The notes: a model not told the origin generated them from the sequence alone. 64,000 nt of DNA from Escherichia phage vB_EcoM_RZ (MW598459), one strand, 5' to 3'. Counted from the stretch's first letter, positions 5,442-13,752 are shown. Translations and numbers: made by a program.

Positions 5442-5858
5442 TTAAGCGTACACAGCTTTCCCATAGTATTTGTACCAAGCAGGCTTTTGAGAAATTTTCT
5501 CATTCAGTCTGGCTTGACTGATTTCAATTGACCAGATTGATGGTTGATAATCATTCTTCCATTCATCAGGAATATCAGTTAAATCTTGGGTAGAAATATC
5601 TTTTATGTTAAACCCTCGCTTTAAACATTCCGCAATAAGTTCTTGATGCCGGTTTTTAAGGAACAAAAGCTTATCATAAAAGAAGATGACATGACCAGTC
5701 CCTAAAAGGAAAGATGATGGGATTTTAAAGTCAGAAACCTTTTTACCATTTTGTACATGCTTACGAACAGCACCAAACACGCGAGGAAGTTCACGATATT
5801 CAGCCATAAGATGTTGGTCAGCGAGTTCAGATACCAGGGTTAAATTAATGCGAGTCAT
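5442..5858 (-). CDS. denV: endonuclease V (pyrimidine-dimer DNA glycosylase)
   Basis: 138 aa; N-terminus [35 protein letters not shown] near-identical to T4 DenV. Confidence 0.95.
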
Positions 5859-5884
5859 GTTTGTTCTCCGTAGTTGATAGGGTC

Positions 5885-5914
5885 ATTATAACCCTATCAT
5901 TTGGAGATGTACAC
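5885..5914 (-). promoter_or_regulatory. T4-type early promoter cassette with dyad around -10
   Basis: Minus strand GTGTAC-N17-TTATAAT; -10 flanked by inverted repeat GATAGGGT/ACCCTATC; leader CAACTACGGAG before denV ATG. Confidence 0.5.
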
Positions 5915-6402
5915 TAATATGCGTCAAAAGTTCCGGTGCGGAAAGTTTCAATAACTCGTTTAGCTCGGTTCGGAGTCTGGACTTTATACCATCTTGAGTC
6001 TGCCAGTTCCTTGGCAGCCGCTTCCCATGATTTAGCCTTCAGCAATCGCATACCCTTAGGAAAACCAGCAACACCAGCAACACCCATCTGGAATACCATA
6101 TTAATGAGTGCACAACGACGAACTTCATCAAGTACATCATAAACAGGTTTTAAGACAGGATGCCTCAAGATTCCGGCTTTAGCTTTTTCGACCGAACGGT
6201 TAAACAATGTTTCAGCTTCGTGCTGGGTTATGCGACCATTACAGACGCGACCCATGAGCTTGTCGAGCTCGGCACGAGCAACATCTTTAGATGGGTTCTT
6301 AGTTATCAGTTGCCCGATGCCAATGGTCCAATAGCCTTCAGTATCTTTATACAAATCCAACTTACAACCTTCATCTATACGTAACATTTCGAATATATTC
6401 AT
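5914..6402 (-). CDS. e: T4-type lysozyme (endolysin)
   Basis: 162 aa; [47 protein letters not shown] matches T4 lysozyme throughout. Confidence 0.97.
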
Positions 6403-6428: not shown

Positions 6429-6893
6429 TTATCCGAAAATTTGAGTCATTACCTTGTACATCGATTTGCCCATCACATACTGCCATTGACTCGGTTTAAT
6501 CAGAGCAAATGCATCGAACTCTGGAACCGAACTACCATCCGGGAAGGTATGATAGGCAGAGCATTTACTATGTCTGAACTGCTCATGCTCGACCGGAACC
6601 GTGTACAAAAACAGGTGAAGATTTTTGTTATCTGAATAACGGAATTCACCTAAGTCTTTTAAGAATGCTGGGTCGTATTGGGTAAACCCGGTTTCTTCTT
6701 CGGTTTCACGGATAGCCGCTTCAATCGGGGATTCACCAGCTTCAACATGACCCTTAGGGATGTCCCATTTGTGTGCAGGCATACCTGGTTTACGAGAACC
6801 AGTCACACGACCCATGAATAACTCTTTATCTTCAGTCATGAAAATAATGCCAGCAGATAATTCTTTCACCTTGTTTTTCTTACTCATCGTCAC
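6429..6893 (-). CDS. nudE: Nudix hydrolase
   Basis: 154 aa; Nudix box GHVEAGESPIEAAIRETEEETG; sits next to e as in T4. Confidence 0.8.
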   Translation of the reverse strand: MTMSKKNKVKELSAGIIFMTEDKELFMGRVTGSRKPGMPAHKWDIPKGHVEAGESPIEAAIRETEEETGFTQYDPAFLKDLGEFRYSDNKNLHLFLYTVPVEHEQFRHSKCSAYHTFPDGSSVPEFDAFALIKPSQWQYVMGKSMYKVMTQIFG

Positions 6894-7116
6894 GTTTCCA
6901 TGATTGGTTAAAAATATCGCTCATTAAAAATTCAAGTCTATTTTCCAATGAAGGGCTTTCACTACTAGAAACTTGAACCATGTAGTCAGCAATAGGTCGG
7001 AACATATCCAAGTCAGTTTCTAAATCATCTTTGATTTTCTCTTCTGATGTACCTGTATCATAGGAATACAGATAAGAATCGCATGACTCAGATTTAATAT
7101 AAATTGCAATACTCAT
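6880..7116 (-). CDS. hypothetical acidic small protein
   Basis: 78-aa ORF; start ATG overlaps stop of upstream gene (TAAATGA). Confidence 0.4.
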   Translation of the reverse strand: MSIAIYIKSESCDSYLYSYDTGTSEEKIKDDLETDLDMFRPIADYMVQVSSSESPSLENRLEFLMSDIFNQSWKRDDE

Positions 7117-7700
7117 TTACGACATTCCTCAATAAAGGAGTTCAATGTATTTTTCTTAGTGATATCGTCATATACCTTTTTAACTTTAGAAATACGAAAA
7201 GGTACTTCAATAACCATAGTCCATAAAAATGATGCAATAAGCCCAGCGAGAGCAGTAGAAAAGCACGCACCCATTACAGCTACGGGTGCTTCATTTTTGC
7301 CTGTCAAGAAAAACCACAGGAATGGTAAAAATAAGATTCCAGCCCAGGCATAAAACCTGGAACAAATTAACTTATCAAATTCATCACTCCAGGTACGAAA
7401 TCCATATTTCTTGCTATAAGAAATTAATGGGTCGGGTGTCTGTTCTTTGAGCGGTTCTGGTTGATGCCCATTAATGATGTATCCCATTTTATATTCCTTA
7501 ATTAAAAGCTCTTTCACATGACGATTGCATCGCGACCAATCAACGTTTTCCACCTTGATTCCTTCATCACCATCATCAAGGTTCGCCCAATATTTTTTGG
7601 TAATCATAAATTCGTCTCTTGATACAATTATACCTGTATTTTCTGCCCGGCGGATGAAGTTTACATCAACACCCATGCAGCCAGTTTCATAAAGGGCCAT
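7113..7700 (-). CDS. hypothetical membrane protein (two predicted TM helices, C-terminal FIEECRK)
   Basis: 195 aa; hydrophobic segments AWAGILFLPFLWFFL and VMGACFSTALAGLIASFLWTMVI; C-tail resembles those of ORFs at 10746, 11086, 11420. Confidence 0.5.
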   Translation of the reverse strand: MALYETGCMGVDVNFIRRAENTGIIVSRDEFMITKKYWANLDDGDEGIKVENVDWSRCNRHVKELLIKEYKMGYIINGHQPEPLKEQTPDPLISYSKKYGFRTWSDEFDKLICSRFYAWAGILFLPFLWFFLTGKNEAPVAVMGACFSTALAGLIASFLWTMVIEVPFRISKVKKVYDDITKKNTLNSFIEECRK

Positions 7701-8386
7701 TACCAGCCCTCCATAGGGAATTCCAGATATACTTGAGCATTAACGCGGATTTCATTTGTAATCTTTTTAACACGGTCGGTATTACGAGACACACGACCAA
7801 ACCAGCGCCAACCGTTACTTACTGCGCGAGAACCCGTATGCCATGTCTGCCAATCAAACTGGAGCAACGTGCGGTCAGGAGCATCCCACTTGGTTAATTC
7901 ATTGGACTCAATTTTTTCCAGAACTTCTTTATGCCACTGGCGATAGATAAGTTCGCCTTCAGGAATCTGACTAAATTGCGCAGTTCCGGTTGCAAAATAA
8001 GTAGGACACACATCAGCGTTAACAAGACCAAGAATATGTTCAGAATGGTAACGAGGATTGTCATAATCAGGTTGCCCTGCAGTAATAAAGTGTTGACCAA
8101 CCGGAATATCCGGGCGTGGTACATCGTCATGGTGATAACCTGGGATAGCAGGATACCAACCAGGCATCAGCATATGAACCCGAGAATCAAATACAACCTG
8201 GTCGGTGTTCCAATCATCCGGCAGACTCATAATAAAGCTACGAGTAATAGGACCGCCATTGTCAAAAGCGAAAGCCAATGAGCTGTTGAAGAACATAGTT
8301 TCGTTTTTGATTTTATCATTAGAAATTTTACCAGCGAAACTGCCTACTGCATGAGCTTGAGAATTAAAAGTTTTTGGACCGTTCAT
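7700..8386 (-). CDS. hypothetical protein
   Basis: 228-aa ORF preceded by an early-promoter cassette. Confidence 0.5.
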   Translation of the reverse strand: MNGPKTFNSQAHAVGSFAGKISNDKIKNETMFFNSSLAFAFDNGGPITRSFIMSLPDDWNTDQVVFDSRVHMLMPGWYPAIPGYHHDDVPRPDIPVGQHFITAGQPDYDNPRYHSEHILGLVNADVCPTYFATGTAQFSQIPEGELIYRQWHKEVLEKIESNELTKWDAPDRTLLQFDWQTWHTGSRAVSNGWRWFGRVSRNTDRVKKITNEIRVNAQVYLEFPMEGW

Positions 8387-8413
8387 AATATTTTCCTCAT
8401 TGATTGTGGGACC

Positions 8414-8443
8414 ATTGTGTCATAGCCCCACTTGGATGTACAC
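8414..8443 (-). promoter_or_regulatory. T4-type early promoter cassette (imperfect dyad)
   Basis: Minus strand GTGTAC-N17-ACACAAT with inverted repeat GTGGGGC/GTCCCAC; leader CAATCAATGAGG before ATG at 8386. Confidence 0.4.
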
Positions 8444-8445
8444 AA

Positions 8446-9405
8446 TTATTTTTCGAAAGGGCGAATTAAATGCTGGTTAGCTTTGAAACGTTTAACATAG
8501 TCTTCGTGACCCAGGGTGTTGTACATATTAACCACTTCCTGATAATGTTCCCAGGCATACTCACGGAACCATCCAGAAGTAATGGAGGTACAGACTTTTT
8601 CCAGCGCAATATGGAAGCTCACGGATGGAGAGATATTGAACTCATTGGGAACCTGCGAACGCTCCAGAGCGAGTACACATGCTTCTTCATAAACCCCTGC
8701 CAGTTTAATAATCTCAGGGAGTGCTTCAAATTTTTCACGCGAGGTCATAACTTCTGAATCATCCTTCATATAGAACTTATATGCAGGTTTATCAGCAAGC
8801 GCCACGGCCTCGTGGATGGAGTCATGGTCAAGGGTATAGATTGTATCATTAAAGAAAGTTTTCTTGCCCACGTCTAGTTTAGGGTGACTATATGACAATG
8901 TTTCTGCCTGGCGCTGCAGCATGATTTTATGCAGTTCGTCATTAAGAACAACACCCTTATTGCGAAGGTAATTAATATGACTCATTGTCTTCAGGAAGAA
9001 TGGATTGTTCTTCAGGTAACGATGAGACAGTTTAATTGCCAGACAAATATCAGGAGTCGCCCAATAGAAACCTGTAAGACGGTCTTTCTTAATATGATTT
9101 TCAGCGTATTTCAAGAGACGATAACTTGAGGTGAAATCTTCATCTTGAAGCTCACCAGTAATTTCTCGTACGTTAGTCAGGGCACGGACAATATAAGCTT
9201 CAAAATAGGTTTCTTTGCCATTGTACATACATTTAAAAGCTTGGACATCAGGGTTATCCACAGGAACATGAGCACCGAACATACGTGCTTTAAAGTGGTT
9301 CCAGGAGCCCTGGTCAGCGATAAAGTCCCAATCAGAGTTTTCAATTTTCTGACTTTCAATCAGACCAGCGTTATGTAATGCACGAGAACCAATAACTAAC
9401 ATCAT
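8446..9405 (-). CDS. hypothetical protein (possible nucleotidyltransferase-like N-terminus)
   Basis: 319 aa; N-terminal VIGSRALH...SDWDFIAD loosely resembles a GS...DxD polymerase-beta-type NTase motif; not verified. Confidence 0.5.
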   Translation of the reverse strand: MMLVIGSRALHNAGLIESQKIENSDWDFIADQGSWNHFKARMFGAHVPVDNPDVQAFKCMYNGKETYFEAYIVRALTNVREITGELQDEDFTSSYRLLKYAENHIKKDRLTGFYWATPDICLAIKLSHRYLKNNPFFLKTMSHINYLRNKGVVLNDELHKIMLQRQAETLSYSHPKLDVGKKTFFNDTIYTLDHDSIHEAVALADKPAYKFYMKDDSEVMTSREKFEALPEIIKLAGVYEEACVLALERSQVPNEFNISPSVSFHIALEKVCTSITSGWFREYAWEHYQEVVNMYNTLGHEDYVKRFKANQHLIRPFEK

Positions 9406-9433
9406 AATATTTTCCTCATTAGTTGACGAGATA

Positions 9434-9463
9434 ATGATACTACGTTTCTTTAGACTTGTATAC
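9434..9463 (-). promoter_or_regulatory. T4-type early promoter cassette
   Basis: Minus strand GTATAC-N18-TATCAT-TATCTCGTCAACTAATGAGG before ATG at 9405. Confidence 0.5.
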
Positions 9464-9506
9464 TAAATCTTGTACATAATTTTCTTATCACATCCTTGTG
9501 ATTAAA

Positions 9507-9734
9507 TTATTTTCCTAACGAAATACGAGTAGGTTTTTTGCCAAAATATTCTTCATAAGAACCATCTAAACGACCCGCTTTAGACCGACAGTATGAATCG
9601 TACTTTTTGTAATAAGTCATCTCAGTATTATAACGCGGGTGTCTATCAGCCATAATAATACTTAATGGCCAACCTTTGGCATAATCGCGAAGACCATTTA
9701 TTTTACTAATGTATCTTTTCTTTAATTTTAGCAT
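9507..9734 (-). CDS. hypothetical basic small protein
   Basis: 75-aa ORF. Confidence 0.4.
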   Translation of the reverse strand: MLKLKKRYISKINGLRDYAKGWPLSIIMADRHPRYNTEMTYYKKYDSYCRSKAGRLDGSYEEYFGKKPTRISLGK

Positions 9735-9952
9735 GAGCTCGGGTACCAGATTTTACCGTCGGCGCGGGCAACGAAGGTACGACCAGCTTCTTCGCCGTAA
9801 CAAGAGCTATTCAGCCAATCTTCAAGACGAACTTCACCGTCATAATCATCTAGCTCAACACCAAAATCCTGAGCAGAAGCCATATCTTTTACTTTCTTAT
9901 ACAGGGCAGCCAGTTCAAGAGCAGCTTTTTCTAATTCGTTAATATCAGTCAT
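9728..9952 (-). CDS. hypothetical small protein (distant member of the C-terminal W-x-S-S-C family)
   Basis: 74 aa, acidic, ends KIWYPSSC-stop. Confidence 0.45.
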   Translation of the reverse strand: MTDINELEKAALELAALYKKVKDMASAQDFGVELDDYDGEVRLEDWLNSSCYGEEAGRTFVARADGKIWYPSSC

Positions 9953-9961
9953 TTTTATTCC

Positions 9962-10156
9962 TTAGCATTCGTAAGAGGAGGACACCCAAGAGGTACCACT
10001 AATTGTAATACAACCATTATAAAGCGTAATATGTCGTTCTAGGTCACGAACACCATCAATGTAGATATCAGCTTCTTCGCGTTCTTCTTTACAAATCTGG
10101 ATAACGTTTTCAATAGCTGCCGCGGCAGTACGGATTGCACAATCTAATTCACGAGA
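9962..10156 (-). CDS. small protein, WVSSSxEC C-terminal family
   Basis: Start at MSRELDC with SD AAGGAA; ends SGTSWVSSSYEC-stop. Confidence 0.5.
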   Translation of the reverse strand, partial: SRELDCAIRTAAAAIENVIQICKEEREEADIYIDGVRDLERHITLYNGCITISGTSWVSSSYEC

Positions 10157-10167
10157 CATATAATTCC

Positions 10168-10449
10168 TTAACATTCAGAAGAGGAGGACACCCAACCGCC
10201 ATTTTCCAGGTCAGTTGTATAGTCATGAGTGTTAACAATAGCCCATTCAGGATGGCCATATTCTTCCCAATGGGCAAGGTCAGCTTTCAAGGCACCAGGA
10301 GAATAATAGTCACCGCCCATACCGCGAGCAGGGTATATATTAAAATGAGTCTCATATTTGTTTGCAATTTCCTCGGCACGCCGAATAGCTTTATGGATGT
10401 CATTTACTGCGTTAGCCAGTTCTTTATTTTTACGGTAATCATTCATCAT
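10168..10449 (-). CDS. small protein, WVSSSxEC C-terminal family
   Basis: 93 aa; ends ENGGWVSSSSEC-stop; 3' coding DNA near-identical to the next family member. Confidence 0.5.
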   Translation of the reverse strand: MMNDYRKNKELANAVNDIHKAIRRAEEIANKYETHFNIYPARGMGGDYYSPGALKADLAHWEEYGHPEWAIVNTHDYTTDLENGGWVSSSSEC

Positions 10450-10458
10450 AACGTTTCC

Positions 10459-10749
10459 TTAGCACATTGCCGAAGAGGAGACCCAAGCACCAACTGTAAC
10501 GACACCGTTTTCAACTTCACCGCCGTTGTTTTCAATTTCATCTTTAAACCACTGGGAGCATTCATAACCGACAGGATAATATGTACGGCCTGAACCATAA
10601 TCACCGGTACCGAATTGGATACCATATTCATCTGCGATTTCTTCGCAGTGTTTTTCAATTTCAGAGGTCTTATTTAGAAGAGAATAGATGGCTTTTTCTG
10701 CAGATTTCTCATCATAATACTTGGGGATAGCAATTTCAATTTTATTCAT
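10459..10749 (-). CDS. small protein, WVSSSxEC C-terminal family
   Basis: 96 aa; ends TVGAWVSSSAMC-stop. Confidence 0.5.
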   Translation of the reverse strand: MNKIEIAIPKYYDEKSAEKAIYSLLNKTSEIEKHCEEIADEYGIQFGTGDYGSGRTYYPVGYECSQWFKDEIENNGGEVENGVVTVGAWVSSSAMC

Positions 10750-11099
10750 GATTTACATTCCTTAATAAAGGTTTCAAGGTCATTACGTTTTGTTTTGTCT
10801 AGGAACTTATTATACTCAGCCATTGCCGAAGCATATCTCTTACGGCTAGGAGCATTCACTGCATTTGTGTGACAGATATCATAAACAACCGGGATAAAAT
10901 AAGCCACAACAGCCGGAGCAATTATCATAAAGAAGCCCATCTCAATAGGCATGACTCCCTCGATTGCAGCCATAACCGTGGTCATTACCAGACCAACCAA
11001 ACCACCGAGCATACCGGTGACAATTCCCAATAATAAATTGCCGCCAATATCATATTCAGCCAATTGATAAACATGTGATGCAAGACTAGGCCGTTCCAT
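10746..11099 (-). CDS. small membrane protein (2 TM, C-terminal FIKECKS)
   Basis: Start at MERPSLAS preceded by SD TAAGGAGG; hydrophobic helices LLLGIVTGMLGGLVGLVMTTVMAAI and FFMIIAPAVVAYFIPVV. Confidence 0.5.
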   Translation of the reverse strand: MERPSLASHVYQLAEYDIGGNLLLGIVTGMLGGLVGLVMTTVMAAIEGVMPIEMGFFMIIAPAVVAYFIPVVYDICHTNAVNAPSRKRYASAMAEYNKFLDKTKRNDLETFIKECKS

Positions 11100-11446
11100 T
11101 ACGAACCTCCTTAATAAATTCTTCGGCACATTTAATTTTGTGCTCTTCTTGTAGGGAAACACATTTTTGTTCCCACTCTTTAACTCGTCCACGATATCCT
11201 TTATTCATATGATTTTGATGCCATACATTTATCAAAATCATACTCAGGACTGTAATAAAAGGAGCTGCGATTATTAGCGCCCAGGCAACTCCAACACTAA
11301 TGATATCCATATCCCCACAAACCACCATCATTATAACCCCAACAATGCACATGGACAAAGCTCCAAATGGAGGCATAAGGTCTTTATCAATCTTGTCTGC
11401 GTATACAAATTTTTCTGGTTTACTTGGCAGATATAACGTTCGCATT
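11086..11446 (-). CDS. small membrane protein (2 TM, C-terminal FIKEVRN)
   Basis: Start at MRTLYLPS with SD AAGGGG; two hydrophobic helices; its tail codons FIKEV contain the SD (AAGGAGG) of the downstream gene. Confidence 0.5.
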
Positions 11447-11992
11447 TTGAACCCCTTTAGCATATTCACGACATTCAGCAATAAAACGATTAAGCTTACG
11501 TTTCCGTTTACGACCCTCTAATGTATACTCAGCCGCCAAATCAAGAAGCTCATCTTTATCATAATTTTTAATATCAGTATAAGTTGGGCGGCGGTCAACC
11601 ATTCCAAAGTGGTCACCATTTTCCAACATCAAATAACACACCAAATGGTCATCATCGTCCGCATTAATAAGCTGCTTATAATCACTTGGTTCATTTAACG
11701 CATACACAGAATAACTCAGCCCAGCGAATTCCACTCGTTGAATACCCAGATTTACGTCAATAATTTCCAAGGCATCTGCAAAAGAAAGGTCTTCAGCTAA
11801 AGCAAAAATAAAAGGCAATTTGGTAGTATCGCCGCGACTTGTTGTTCTTCTTAAGAAATCATTGGAATAGCCCAAGTCGCGGCGGATTCTATAAAGAACT
11901 GTGTTAGTTTCAGTGGCAAGACCACTACCGCCAAACCATTCCACATTTGATAAAAGATTATCATATAAAGTCATAATTTTCTCCTCTCCCAA
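11420..11992 (-). CDS. hypothetical protein (C-terminal KRKRK..FIAECRE)
   Basis: 190-aa ORF, acidic core, basic tail. Confidence 0.5.
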   Translation of the reverse strand: MGEEKIMTLYDNLLSNVEWFGGSGLATETNTVLYRIRRDLGYSNDFLRRTTSRGDTTKLPFIFALAEDLSFADALEIIDVNLGIQRVEFAGLSYSVYALNEPSDYKQLINADDDDHLVCYLMLENGDHFGMVDRRPTYTDIKNYDKDELLDLAAEYTLEGRKRKRKLNRFIAECREYAKGVQNANVISAK

Positions 11993-12016
11993 TTAGGGGG
12001 CTTTACCCCCTTTATC

Positions 12017-12610
12017 TTACTTAAGTGAATTAATGTATTCTTCAATGTCAGCGGACGTGGTATCCACACCAACCTGTGGGCCTTTGAAGGTTTCAACACG
12101 CATCAGAGTGTCTTCAATATCAATCTTAGTCAATGCAGCGATTTCAACAACATCATCTGCAGTCGCAATACCCAGGGCAGATACCTTACGGGTTTCGCGG
12201 ATGTATTCCAGTTTAACAGCTAGTTCCTGACGAGAATCATCCAACTCTTTAACTTTCAATTTAATTTCATTACGCATTTCAACATAATCATCTGCCTTCT
12301 TACGAAGTTGTTTAGCAGTACGACGATACAGGAGACCCAGTTTAGCATGGACCTGGACATCCGCACCATCAGCAATCAGTTTGCGGATTTCACGCTCTTT
12401 TGAAGCGGCGAGTTGGTCTTTTTCATTCGCTAACTCACGGATGCGTTTTTCTTCATTAACCGACTTAACGTGGGCGGTCTGGAGCTCAGTAATCTTGTCA
12501 ATCAGGGTAGACGCTGCTTGAGTATATTGGTCTTCAATAGACAGATTTTTTGTCATTGCAGTACCCAGTTTGGAGCGGATGAATTCAACAAGTTTCTTTA
12601 AAGTATTCAT
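12017..12610 (-). CDS. hypothetical coiled-coil protein
   Basis: 197 aa, charged heptad-like K/E-rich sequence; own early promoter upstream. Confidence 0.55.
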
Positions 12611-12676: not shown

Positions 12677-12706
12677 ATTATGCCTTAAAGCAGGGGGCTT
12701 GTATAC
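12677..12706 (-). promoter_or_regulatory. T4-type early promoter cassette; -35 lies in a G5/C5 hairpin
   Basis: Minus strand GTATAC-N18-CATAAT-GATTCCATACTGAGTTACAC; hairpin GGGGGCTTGTATACCCCC (12693-12710) followed on plus by TTTTTT. Confidence 0.5.
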
Positions 12707-12718
12707 CCCCTTTTTTAA

Positions 12719-13162
12719 TTAAATTTCAAATTCTTTGCGGAAGTTGGAAGCATAAGACTGAACTGACGCTTTGTTGAATCCAAACTCACGCACAATCATA
12801 TCAATAACAGCTCTGCGAGCAGCACCATTAGACATATTAACAGTTTTGAACATATCATAGCATAAATCTTTGTTGCTCATACCGGAGCGTTTAGGTGCCT
12901 TACGCTCAGCTTTTGGTTCAGCTTTAGGAGTAGGTTTAACTTCTGGGTTAACCTGTCCATCATTCAGACCTTTAAAAATTTTACCTGCCAGAGTTGCCAG
13001 TTTAGCAGCTTCGCCACGAGTGATACCAAATACTGCCGGGTTAAATGAAATACCTTCAGCTGTCAGACGTTTGAAGAACATACGTGCTGCGGATTGTGCT
13101 TCAGCTTCAGAAGAGTTGTTTAATGCCAGTTTAACATACTTAACCAGTTTTGAAGTTTTCAT
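12719..13162 (-). CDS. hypothetical protein, paralog A (shared C-terminal VQSYASNFRK domain)
   Basis: Start at MKTSKLVKYV; C-terminal ~45 aa (NGAARRAVIDMIV..VQSYASNFRK) shared with ORF 13246-13671. Confidence 0.55.
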   Translation of the reverse strand: MKTSKLVKYVKLALNNSSEAEAQSAARMFFKRLTAEGISFNPAVFGITRGEAAKLATLAGKIFKGLNDGQVNPEVKPTPKAEPKAERKAPKRSGMSNKDLCYDMFKTVNMSNGAARRAVIDMIVREFGFNKASVQSYASNFRKEFEI

Positions 13163-13204
13163 TTTATTATCCCGTTTGTTTATTTGGTAACTCAGTATGG
13201 GATA

Positions 13205-13234
13205 ATTATACATTATCCCACCTGGAAGTAAAAC
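13205..13234 (-). promoter_or_regulatory. T4-type early promoter cassette with dyad around -10
   Basis: Minus strand TTTTAC-N17-TATAAT; -10 flanked by GGGATAAT/ATTATCCC; leader TATCCCATACTGAGTTACC. Confidence 0.5.
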
Positions 13235-13245
13235 ACTTTTCTCAA

Positions 13246-13671
13246 TTATTTTTGAGCTTTGCGGAAGTTGGATGCATATGACTGAACAACAGTCTTTTTG
13301 ATATCATGGGTGGTAACCAGAACATCAATCAGAGCGCGACGAGCTGCATTATCATTCATATCAATTTCTGCAAATGCCTGGAAGCAAATGTCACGAGCGT
13401 TACCAGATTTGGACTGGATTTTTTCTTCTTTAACTTCTTCAATTGGGAATTCAATCATTTCAGCTTGGATTAATTCAATGATAGATTCTTTTGACTGTTT
13501 GGTGTTTACCTTCAGTTCAGAATTAAGGGACTTGGCAATGGCAACAATCTGGGTTGAAGTCAGATGGATAAGTGCATCTTCACGAATGCAGATTTCACAT
13601 ACTTCGTCAGCAACCATTTTGTTAGTGATGCGGGTAACAGAGAATGCAGAGGTCAGGGTCAGAAAGTTCAT
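13246..13671 (-). CDS. hypothetical protein, paralog B (shared C-terminal VQSYASNFRK domain)
   Basis: Start at MNFLTLTS with SD GGAG; C-terminal NDNAARRALIDVLV..VQSYASNFRK. Confidence 0.55.
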   Translation of the reverse strand: MNFLTLTSAFSVTRITNKMVADEVCEICIREDALIHLTSTQIVAIAKSLNSELKVNTKQSKESIIELIQAEMIEFPIEEVKEEKIQSKSGNARDICFQAFAEIDMNDNAARRALIDVLVTTHDIKKTVVQSYASNFRKAQK

Positions 13672-13723
13672 TTTATTTCTCCAAAGTTTTGTTTGATTCA
13701 GTGTGTAACTCAGTATGGAATCA

Positions 13724-13752
13724 TTATGCACCCGGTCAATCTGGATGTACAC
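13724..13752 (-). promoter_or_regulatory. T4-type early promoter cassette
   Basis: Minus strand GTGTAC-N18-CATAAT-GATTCCATACTGAGTTACACAC; leader near-identical to the 12677 and 52392 copies. Confidence 0.5.

Follow-up and report, generated by a model that had tools for sequence, protein, structure and literature searches.

Why should membrane and soluble proteins encoded side by side in a phage genome end in nearly the same few residues? The question is raised by four open reading frames (ORFs) in a 64,000-nucleotide stretch of DNA from Escherichia phage vB_EcoM_RZ (MW598459), hereafter the window, which belongs to the T4-like genus Gaprivervirus and is 97% identical to Escherichia phage DK-13 over positions 7000-12100; the minus strand carries all genes of the region. 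A first-pass annotation had read the common F-I-x-E-C-(R/K) ending as the mark of a paralogous family of small membrane proteins, and had suspected that part of it was owed to the ribosome-binding site of the next gene. We find that the tail is conserved for its amino acids on proteins that for the most part have nothing else in common, and tentatively propose that it is a docking peptide for the product of the adjacent gene e.6.

Four T4 genes with one C-terminal motif

Gene identities were taken from the annotated relatives SP18, DK-13, T4 and RB69 together with PHROG profiles. The four ORFs are the T4 genes e.2 (7113..7700, 195 amino acids (aa)), e.3 (10746..11099, 117 aa), e.4 (11086..11445, 119 aa) and e.5 (11420..11974, 184 aa), all on the minus strand. 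By profile and by synteny they are direct orthologues of T4 e.2-e.5 (PHROGs 2203, 2330, 2604 and 2607/8788): e.2 matched phrog_2203 at 3.7e-65, e.3 matched phrog_2330 at 1.2e-45, e.4 matched phrog_2604 at 2.2e-45, and e.5 matched phrog_8788 at 8e-111 and phrog_2607 weakly, while the genes keep the same strand and the same place between e.6 and nudE/e. With a value of 92% by hhalign against e.5 of T4, RB69 and Roth04, window e.5 is a divergent homologue of T4 e.5 whose body is a phrog_8788 variant. This divergent body is one of two differences from T4; the other is a 3-kb insertion, also present in RB69, JS10 and SP18, that splits e.3 from e.2, whereas e.2-e.5 are contiguous in T4. Two boundaries differ from those first assigned: e.4 starts at 11445 (11446 was off by one), and for e.5 we prefer the ATG at 11974, which a strong Shine-Dalgarno (SD) sequence precedes, to the upstream TTG at 11992, which homologue annotations do not use.

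At the protein level, e.2 ends in ..LNSFIEECRK, e.3 in ..LETFIKECKS, e.4 in ..EEFIKEVRNGTA and e.5 in ..NRFIAECREYAKGVQNANVISAK, the motif stretch of e.5 (..LNRFIAECREYAK..) standing 15 residues before the stop; all four conform to F-I-x-E-[C/V]-[R/K]. The motif codons occupy 7119..7136 in e.2 (FIEECR), 10752..10769 in e.3 (FIKECK), 11101..11118 in e.4 (FIKEVR, with Val for Cys) and 11468..11485 in e.5 (FIAECR), again on the minus strand. Among the 417 window ORFs of at least 40 aa, F[IV]xEC[RK] has three matches, all within the cluster and all no more than 20 residues from a C-terminus, against a shuffle expectation of 0.03 anywhere and 0.007 at C-termini, indicating that the tail is real and non-random, as first noticed. 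A looser pattern also captures e.4, and in the whole T4 genome (830 ORFs) the C-terminal matches to that pattern are four, namely e.2, e.3, e.4 and e.5.

A peptide feature that often hosts a ribosome-binding site

The suspicion that an SD sequence inside the motif codons explains part of the conservation is borne out locally: AAGGAGGT lies within the FIKEV codons of e.4, 5 nucleotides (nt) upstream of the e.3 ATG, and AAGGAA/GAGGAA lies in e.3 and e.2, 8 nt before the next ATG. A feature acting at the nucleotide level, whether SD placement and translational coupling that constrain the codons or a DNA linker for recombinational shuffling of cassettes, would also suit the commonest arrangement, in which 20 or 26 nt separate the F codon from the next ATG and the SD (AAGGAA, AAGGAGGT or GCAGGAAA) falls in the x-E-C or C-R-K codons, as well as the ATGA overlap with the neighbour in most genes.

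Comparison of 47 tail-bearing genes from 11 lineages (Gapriver-, Tequatro-, Mosig-, Dhaka-, Kanagawa-, Winkler-, Teguna-, Moon-, Karam- and Gualtarvirus, and a Klebsiella phage) argues against such a feature as the cause. Residue counts along the motif are F43/W2/Y2, I35/V11/L1, x, x, C38 (V/I/M/S in 9) and R43/K4, position -3 being hydrophobic in 42 of the 47, and the conserved residues are spelled in many ways: Phe by TTT and TTC, I/V by six different codons, Cys by TGT (22) and TGC (16), and Arg by all six of its codons (AGA 16, CGT 9, CGA 6, AGG 6, CGC 4, CGG 2). The two x positions, which form the SD site in the commonest arrangement, are nevertheless the most variable, with 19 codons each, and the exchange of F for Y or W is conservative at the protein level only. 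Nor does the motif regularly overlap the SD window of the next gene. Its F codon lies 17-83 nt from the next start, and in 12 of 45 cases the distance is at least 34 nt, which puts the motif outside any SD window; these cases include window e.5 (40 nt upstream of the e.4 ATG) and genes that precede an intergenic gap (PS49 s113, JS10 gp122 and three in Roth04). The earlier remark that the motif recurs at different distances from the stop is thereby extended to the next start and to other phages, where the tail is kept 34-83 nt away from it with synonymous codon variation. Other T4 genes with embedded SDs never encode the motif, and tail-to-tail identical runs in the window are at most 11 nt long; recent gene conversion between tails is unlikely, given the same short runs and the synonymous differences within genomes. 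With varied codons at F, I/V, C and R, variable SD positions and distant next starts, the conservation is one of amino acids and not of nucleotides: the tail is primarily a peptide feature, into whose codons an SD often falls. A nucleotide-level origin is already contradicted as the main cause, and we give it next to no weight.

One tail on many bodies

Does the tail then mark a family of paralogues? For two of the genes it does. e.3 and e.4 are tandem paralogues, aligned by BLASTP over 84 aa with one gap (E 5e-6) and by hhalign of their family profiles at 95% (108 columns), a value that stayed at 79% (82 columns) after removal of the tail, against 4% for a reversed-sequence null. The value for e.2 and e.3, by contrast, fell from 92% with the tail to 6% without it (null 3%), that for e.2 and e.4 without the tail was 0.9%, at null level, and e.5 matched the others across 10-17 tail residues only. 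Similarity thus reaches well beyond the SD-encoding codons in e.3 and e.4 and is limited to the tail in e.2 and e.5, and the proposal of one demonstrable membrane-protein family comprising all four ORFs is not supported. The wider set behaves likewise: with their tails cut off, the 47 proteins fall into 27 BLASTP clusters, soluble proteins included, and the carriers range from 49 to 273 aa with 0, 2 or 4 transmembrane (TM) segments. Relatives of the membrane hairpins are few, since a TM-hairpin profile retrieved 14 representatives among 1.84 billion proteins, confined to T4-like phages, a single-sequence homologue search with e.3 returned close relatives only, and a scan of IMG/VR with e.4 returned only 8 loci.

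The paralogy of e.3 and e.4 is what would be expected if a single ancestor had been duplicated in tandem and had diverged except in the tail, the tail proteins binding each other and e.6 being a mere neighbour. The tail would then mediate homo- or hetero-oligomerisation, for example in a helical bundle tying soluble e.5 to the membrane hairpins. In one protein (P0086) the body is e.3-like and the tail e.4-like, and tail variants specific to a lineage co-occur (a Y start in two of the four tabulated tails of Gualtarvirus PSTRCR_127 and in three of six in locus L065, a W start in two Roth04 tails, FV in three of the four T4 tails), which fits co-evolving partners or local duplication; an amphipathic, charge-neutral helix, the form suggested for the tail below, would also suit helix-helix packing. 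However, most pairs have no similarity beyond the tail, profile-profile comparison being at null level, their carriers differ in architecture, with 0, 2 or 4 TM segments and lengths of 49-316 aa, and the start of the set right after e.6, even in another genomic context, is left unexplained. We regard descent and mutual binding of this kind as unlikely to be the explanation, while noting that it is compatible with docking to a common partner.

The tail genes accompany e.6

The gene upstream of the four, e.6 (12017..12610, minus strand, 197 aa), is the first of the module and does not carry the tail motif. It was found by tblastn in 1109 phage records, an IMG/VR scan supplied further loci, and 46 e.6-anchored loci, most of them closely related, were examined. 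Under a strict pattern ([FYW][IV]xxC[RK], no more than 20 residues from the C-terminus) there were 127 matches in 768 same-strand ORFs downstream of e.6, compared with one in 674 upstream and two among 1133 ORFs of the opposite strand. Every one of the 46 loci has tail genes after e.6, and in 43 of 44 the gene directly behind e.6 bears F[IV]xxC close to its C-terminus, the exception being a frameshifted e.5. Klebsiella phage phi1_146010, whose e.6 stands in a group of nrd genes and away from the lysozyme gene, obeys this first-gene rule, and F[IV]xxC also follows e.6, with the Arg lost, in the Ceceduovirus (Emmerichvirinae) phage CC2. The complete genome of RB49 (Krischvirus), on the other hand, contains no e.6 homologue (best E 0.2) and no tail genes, its sole C-terminal motif match being the unrelated thymidine kinase. 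In sum, at least 12 Straboviridae lineages have the motif in one to six genes per genome, membrane and soluble, that stand immediately behind e.6, a context that was absent from the first-pass annotation, and the downstream enrichment together with the co-absence in RB49 suggests that tail genes and e.6 travel together.

This restriction bears on another explanation. C-terminal tags are a known principle, and a short, cytoplasm-exposed C-terminal motif common to unrelated proteins could be one, recognised by FtsH, Lon or ClpXP as a degron or adaptor site, or else by a chaperone or targeting factor of the host, so that its carriers would share a fate, for instance turnover at a set time or delivery. 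We know of no degron or targeting signal resembling F-[IV]-x-x-C-R, and a host-factor tag would not explain why the motif is restricted to the neighbourhood of e.6 and missing from early T4 proteins elsewhere. In favour of timed turnover, the T4 products accumulate in different temporal classes although their RNAs are all early (PMC9697503). Overall, we judge a host-factor tag to be improbable.

A predicted cytoplasmic amphipathic helix

Hydropathy agreed with the topology first described: e.2 (residues 114-134 and 142-164), e.3 (20-45 and 53-73) and e.4 (27-44 and 51-73) each have two hydrophobic segments separated by a loop of 6-7 residues and followed by a K/R-rich tail, which in e.4 is predicted to be helical, and e.5 has no hydrophobic segment (maximum KD19 1.27). 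A soluble domain of about 110 residues precedes the hairpin in e.2. The loop holds at most one basic residue, and none in e.3 and e.4, so by the positive-inside rule loop and K/R-rich tails together point to inner-membrane helical hairpins of N-in/C-in topology, with the tail in the cytoplasm.

When the 12 residues from -6 to +5 are taken as a helix, the mean hydrophobic moment is 0.53, compared with 0.30 for shuffled sequences, and 96% of the tails lie above their own shuffled mean; positions -3, 0, +1 and +4 make up the hydrophobic face, and the mean net charge is +0.06. The e.4 lineage has V, I, M or S at the Cys position, so the Cys probably contributes as a small hydrophobic side chain and does not bind metal or serve in redox chemistry; nor is the tail likely to form a disulfide or a metal site together with e.6, since the window e.6 protein has no Cys. 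The tail would accordingly be a short amphipathic helix of the form hydrophobic-x-x-F-[I/V]-x-x-C-R-[K/R/G], with V/I/M/S for C in the e.4 lineage. In an AlphaFold2 (AF2) model of e.5, computed from a 36-sequence alignment with a predicted local distance difference test score (pLDDT) of 42, the C-terminus is modelled as a helix (residues 153-183).

An amphipathic helix at a C-terminus might also bind lipid, lying in the plane of the membrane as do the C-terminal membrane-targeting sequences of MinD and FtsA and holding e.5 and the tails of e.2-e.4 there. The hydrophobic moment and the terminal position speak for this. The net charge speaks against it, being about 0 instead of the +3 to +4 of the MinD and FtsA helices, as does the low mean hydrophobicity. 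Lipid-binding helices moreover tolerate far more variation than is seen at F, C and R, whose near-invariance argues for specific protein recognition, and such a helix would be superfluous in proteins already anchored in the membrane. Lipid targeting is thus hardly to be expected as the function of the tail.

e.6 as a probable relative of PspA and Vipp1

When the e.6 family profile was compared with all PDB sequences, Vipp1/IM30 took the first four places (E 1.2e-3, 5.5e-3, 0.022 and 0.038), the alignment staying in register from the first residue for about 140 residues, and more Vipp1/PspA chains appeared lower down. TIGR02977 (PspA) was matched by one e.6 family member at 9.5e-4. A single-sequence AF2 model of e.6 shows a helical hairpin with good confidence (residues 21-140, pLDDT about 71-97), and its ten best PDB matches in Foldseek were all Vipp1/PspA, with E from 1.7e-4; the long alpha1-alpha2/3 helical hairpin that characterises PspA, IM30 and Vipp1 is present in the model. 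From profile and model together, e.6 is probably an all-helical hairpin protein of the PspA/Vipp1 type, within the ESCRT-III superfamily. One deposited genome (NM4.3) records the HHsearch result 'shock protein' for its e.6, while our literature search retrieved no paper tying a phage-encoded PspA to T4, and a survey of phage shock protein (PSP) systems is silent on viruses.

A possible docking code for a membrane-maintenance protein

The tail is the sole feature common to otherwise dissimilar proteins, and its genes stand directly after e.6 and are absent together with it from RB49. On these grounds we suggest that the tail may be a cytoplasmic docking helix that joins membrane anchors and a soluble protein to a common partner, most likely e.6, a reading that we find plausible while stopping short of calling it probable. 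The hairpin proteins e.2, e.3 and e.4 would then be membrane anchors or nucleation sites, e.5 would be a soluble adaptor or competitor, and e.2-e.6 as a whole would be a module, expressed early, with which the phage maintains or remodels the inner membrane of its host during infection. The T4 transcripts of e.2-e.6 are without exception early, and each of the five proteins has been detected (PMC9697503, supplementary files 4 and 6). The more specific proposal that the peptide acts as a code recruiting the anchors and adaptors of an ESCRT-III/PspA-like remodelling or repair protein, e.6, is doubtful as things stand. If true, the code would be carried by fast-evolving, otherwise unrelated membrane and soluble proteins of a hyperplastic locus, would represent a motif-based recruitment not described for any bacterial Psp system, and might shield the inner membrane of the infected cell, for example from pore-forming abortive-infection effectors or from premature lysis.

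Bacterial PspA homologues are typically encoded beside small membrane partners (PMC11237479). PspB/PspC of E. coli, LiaI/LiaF of B. subtilis and PspM of M. tuberculosis are small membrane proteins with cytoplasmic helical regions, and the proposed phage anchors would parallel PspB/PspC, LiaI and PspM; a soluble PspAA partner also accompanies bacterial PspA homologues. The adjacent, co-oriented layout of PspA and its partners is matched by e.6 followed by e.5, e.4, e.3 ... e.2, provided that e.6 is PspA-like. The phage two-TM hairpins differ, however, from the single TM helix of PspB and from the four-TM LiaI-LiaF-TM domain, and for the PspB/PspC, LiaI or PspM systems no C-terminal motif is described that the membrane proteins have in common with a soluble partner.

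Several points weigh against the docking proposal and its PspA-like partner. The adjacency to e.6 could be mere conserved gene order of T4-like genomes, as the 46 loci are mostly from close relatives and the complete genomes without e.6 that were examined number one (RB49). The Arg is not kept in Ceceduovirus, whose tails read FVNYCI and FVDYCV. By sequence the link of e.6 to PspA is borderline: the HMMER score of the e.6-Vipp1 match has a large bias term, Pfam PF04012 is unmatched by e.6, and hhalign of e.6 with a Vipp1+PspA profile reached only 30% (E 5.5e-4, residues 1-67 in register), with a two-sequence profile in which PspA is that of E. coli. Furthermore, e.2-e.4 match no PspB, PspC or LiaI model, and the AF2 model of e.5 failed at the pLDDT given above.

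The idea of unrelated proteins sharing a terminal peptide has precedents in T4 itself. The C-terminal peptides of gp43 (SLDFLFG), gp33 (TLDFLL) and gp55 (SLDFLYEAND), as read in T4, bind the gp45 clamp, so that unrelated proteins dock on one hub. Their L-D-F-L-[FLY] differs in sequence and spacing from the tail, hydrophobic-x-x-F-[IV]-x-x-C-R, and LDF occurs in few tails only; we therefore rejected the tail as a clamp-binding peptide. The T-even internal proteins IPI, IPII, IPIII and Alt share a capsid-targeting sequence, which is N-terminal, is cleaved by gp21 and serves head packaging. There too a hypervariable locus encodes dissimilar proteins to which one short terminal peptide gives a common fate, the difference being that the present motif occupies the C-terminus of early proteins of the membrane or cytoplasm.

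For the roles first suggested for the tail proteins, namely superinfection exclusion, a holin/antiholin function or anti-defence, we found no positive evidence. T4 Imm, Sp, holin T and antiholin RI are likewise small phage membrane proteins, but their genes (imm, sp, t and rI) are at other places in the genome and do not encode the motif, and lysis timing is already served by t and rI. The four window proteins matched no holin, antiholin or other functional family in Pfam or PHROGs, and the EAWsc9 record owes its 'holin' label to automatic annotation. Pfam gave no informative match for these four or for their T4, RB69 and Roth04 orthologues; relatives of e.4 and e.5 are tagged PF26873 and PF26876 in the search database. 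Membership of the tail proteins among the holins, Imm/Sp, PspB/PspC or LiaI was thus not indicated by any test. Annotations of e.2-e.5 read hypothetical or predicted membrane protein throughout, and we found neither the shared tail nor its link to e.6 described in the literature. The genes are known, hypothetical T4 genes, for which the closest analogy, if the mechanism holds, would be a PspA system with small membrane partners combined with motif-based recruitment.

Even in T4, the best-studied of the large phages, about half of the genes, e.2-e.6 among them, lack a known function. A motif in four to six expressed early proteins, next to a putative PspA/ESCRT-III-like neighbour, turns five anonymous ORFs into one testable module. 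Should the link to e.6 be true, it would describe a phage-encoded membrane-maintenance system and a new principle of recruitment, and would matter for lysis inhibition, for membrane-attacking abortive-infection defences and for the evolution of ESCRT-III. Should it fail, the tail would still be a clean case of a protein-level C-terminal motif only seemingly explained by an embedded ribosome-binding site.

Further features of the locus

e.2 is named as such in the SP18 and JS10 annotations, and M32, the annotated start in JS10, is a possible alternative start. In reference T4 the gene is split: the annotated e.2, of 102 aa, ends after the first TM segment, and a separate 63-aa ORF holds the second TM segment and a ..NNFITECRKLK tail (5722-6030 and 6018-6209 of locus L004; NC_000866 67472-67960). 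As e.2 is intact at 162 aa in three other Tequatroviruses (loci L011, L012 and L014), the T4 laboratory strain may hold a frameshifted e.2.

Orthologues of e.4 occur in T4, RB69 and Klebsiella phages. The gene overlaps e.3 by 14 nt and e.5 by 26 nt, the latter out of frame (11420-11445; 32 nt at 68662-68693 in T4), and its conserved N-terminus LYLPSKP is encoded over conserved C-terminal residues of e.5 (..ISAK / ..IPSK), which makes the overlap a dual-coding stretch. Near-identical copies of e.4 and e.5 are filed under bacterial names (P0013 and P0080), one as 'sulfurtransferase [Xanthomonas pisi]' on a 508-bp contig and the other as 'hypothetical protein, partial [Enterococcus faecalis]' on a 413-bp contig; both are probably phage contamination of assemblies, and the Xanthomonas pisi one is probably misannotated.

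Between e.6 and e.5 lies a GC-rich hairpin (11995..12011, minus strand), GGGGG-TAAAG-CCCCC on the coding strand, and a similar one stands upstream of e.6 (12692-12711) beside sigma-70-like promoter hexamers. Both have the form AGGGGG-loop-CCCCCT, and no T-run comes after either of them on the coding strand. From a consensus scan, by which hairpins and hexamers alike were located, these two elements flanking e.6 may be early-promoter or RNA-stability elements. Further upstream, the adjacent paralogues 12719-13213 and 13246-13752 (minus strand; phrog_18416 and phrog_9997, cross-matching at about 1e-16) share a C-terminal domain that ends ..VQSYASNFRK and has no Pfam match.

Downstream of the four genes come a 78-aa ORF, nudE and the lysozyme gene e. 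The 78-aa ORF (6880-7116, minus strand; phrog_2900) is acidic and follows the last tail gene; counterparts ending ..SWE.. occupy the same place in RB69, JS10, Roth04, X20, Kc304 and PS49, with a possible, weaker one in PSTRCR_127 and none in T4. The insertion between e.3 and e.2 encodes a 319-aa DUF7277+DUF7275 protein (8446-9405) and a 228-aa phrog_1843 protein (7700-8386), both on the minus strand; in Aeromonas phage CC2 a single small ORF separates a phrog_1843 homologue from e.6, which is downstream of it.

Four small soluble ORFs in a row on the minus strand (9728-9952, 9962-10174, 10168-10449 and 10459-10749) carry a C-terminal signature of their own, W-x-[SP]-S-S-(x-x)-C, ending WVSSSSEC, WVSSSYEC, WVSSSAMC and WYPSSC, with profile matches to phrog_899 and phrog_4882. 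They are a second family defined by its terminus, and in Dhaka-, Kanagawa-, Winkler-, Teguna-, Moon- and Karamvirus the signature recurs in two to five genes per genome, interleaved with the FIxxCR-tail genes.

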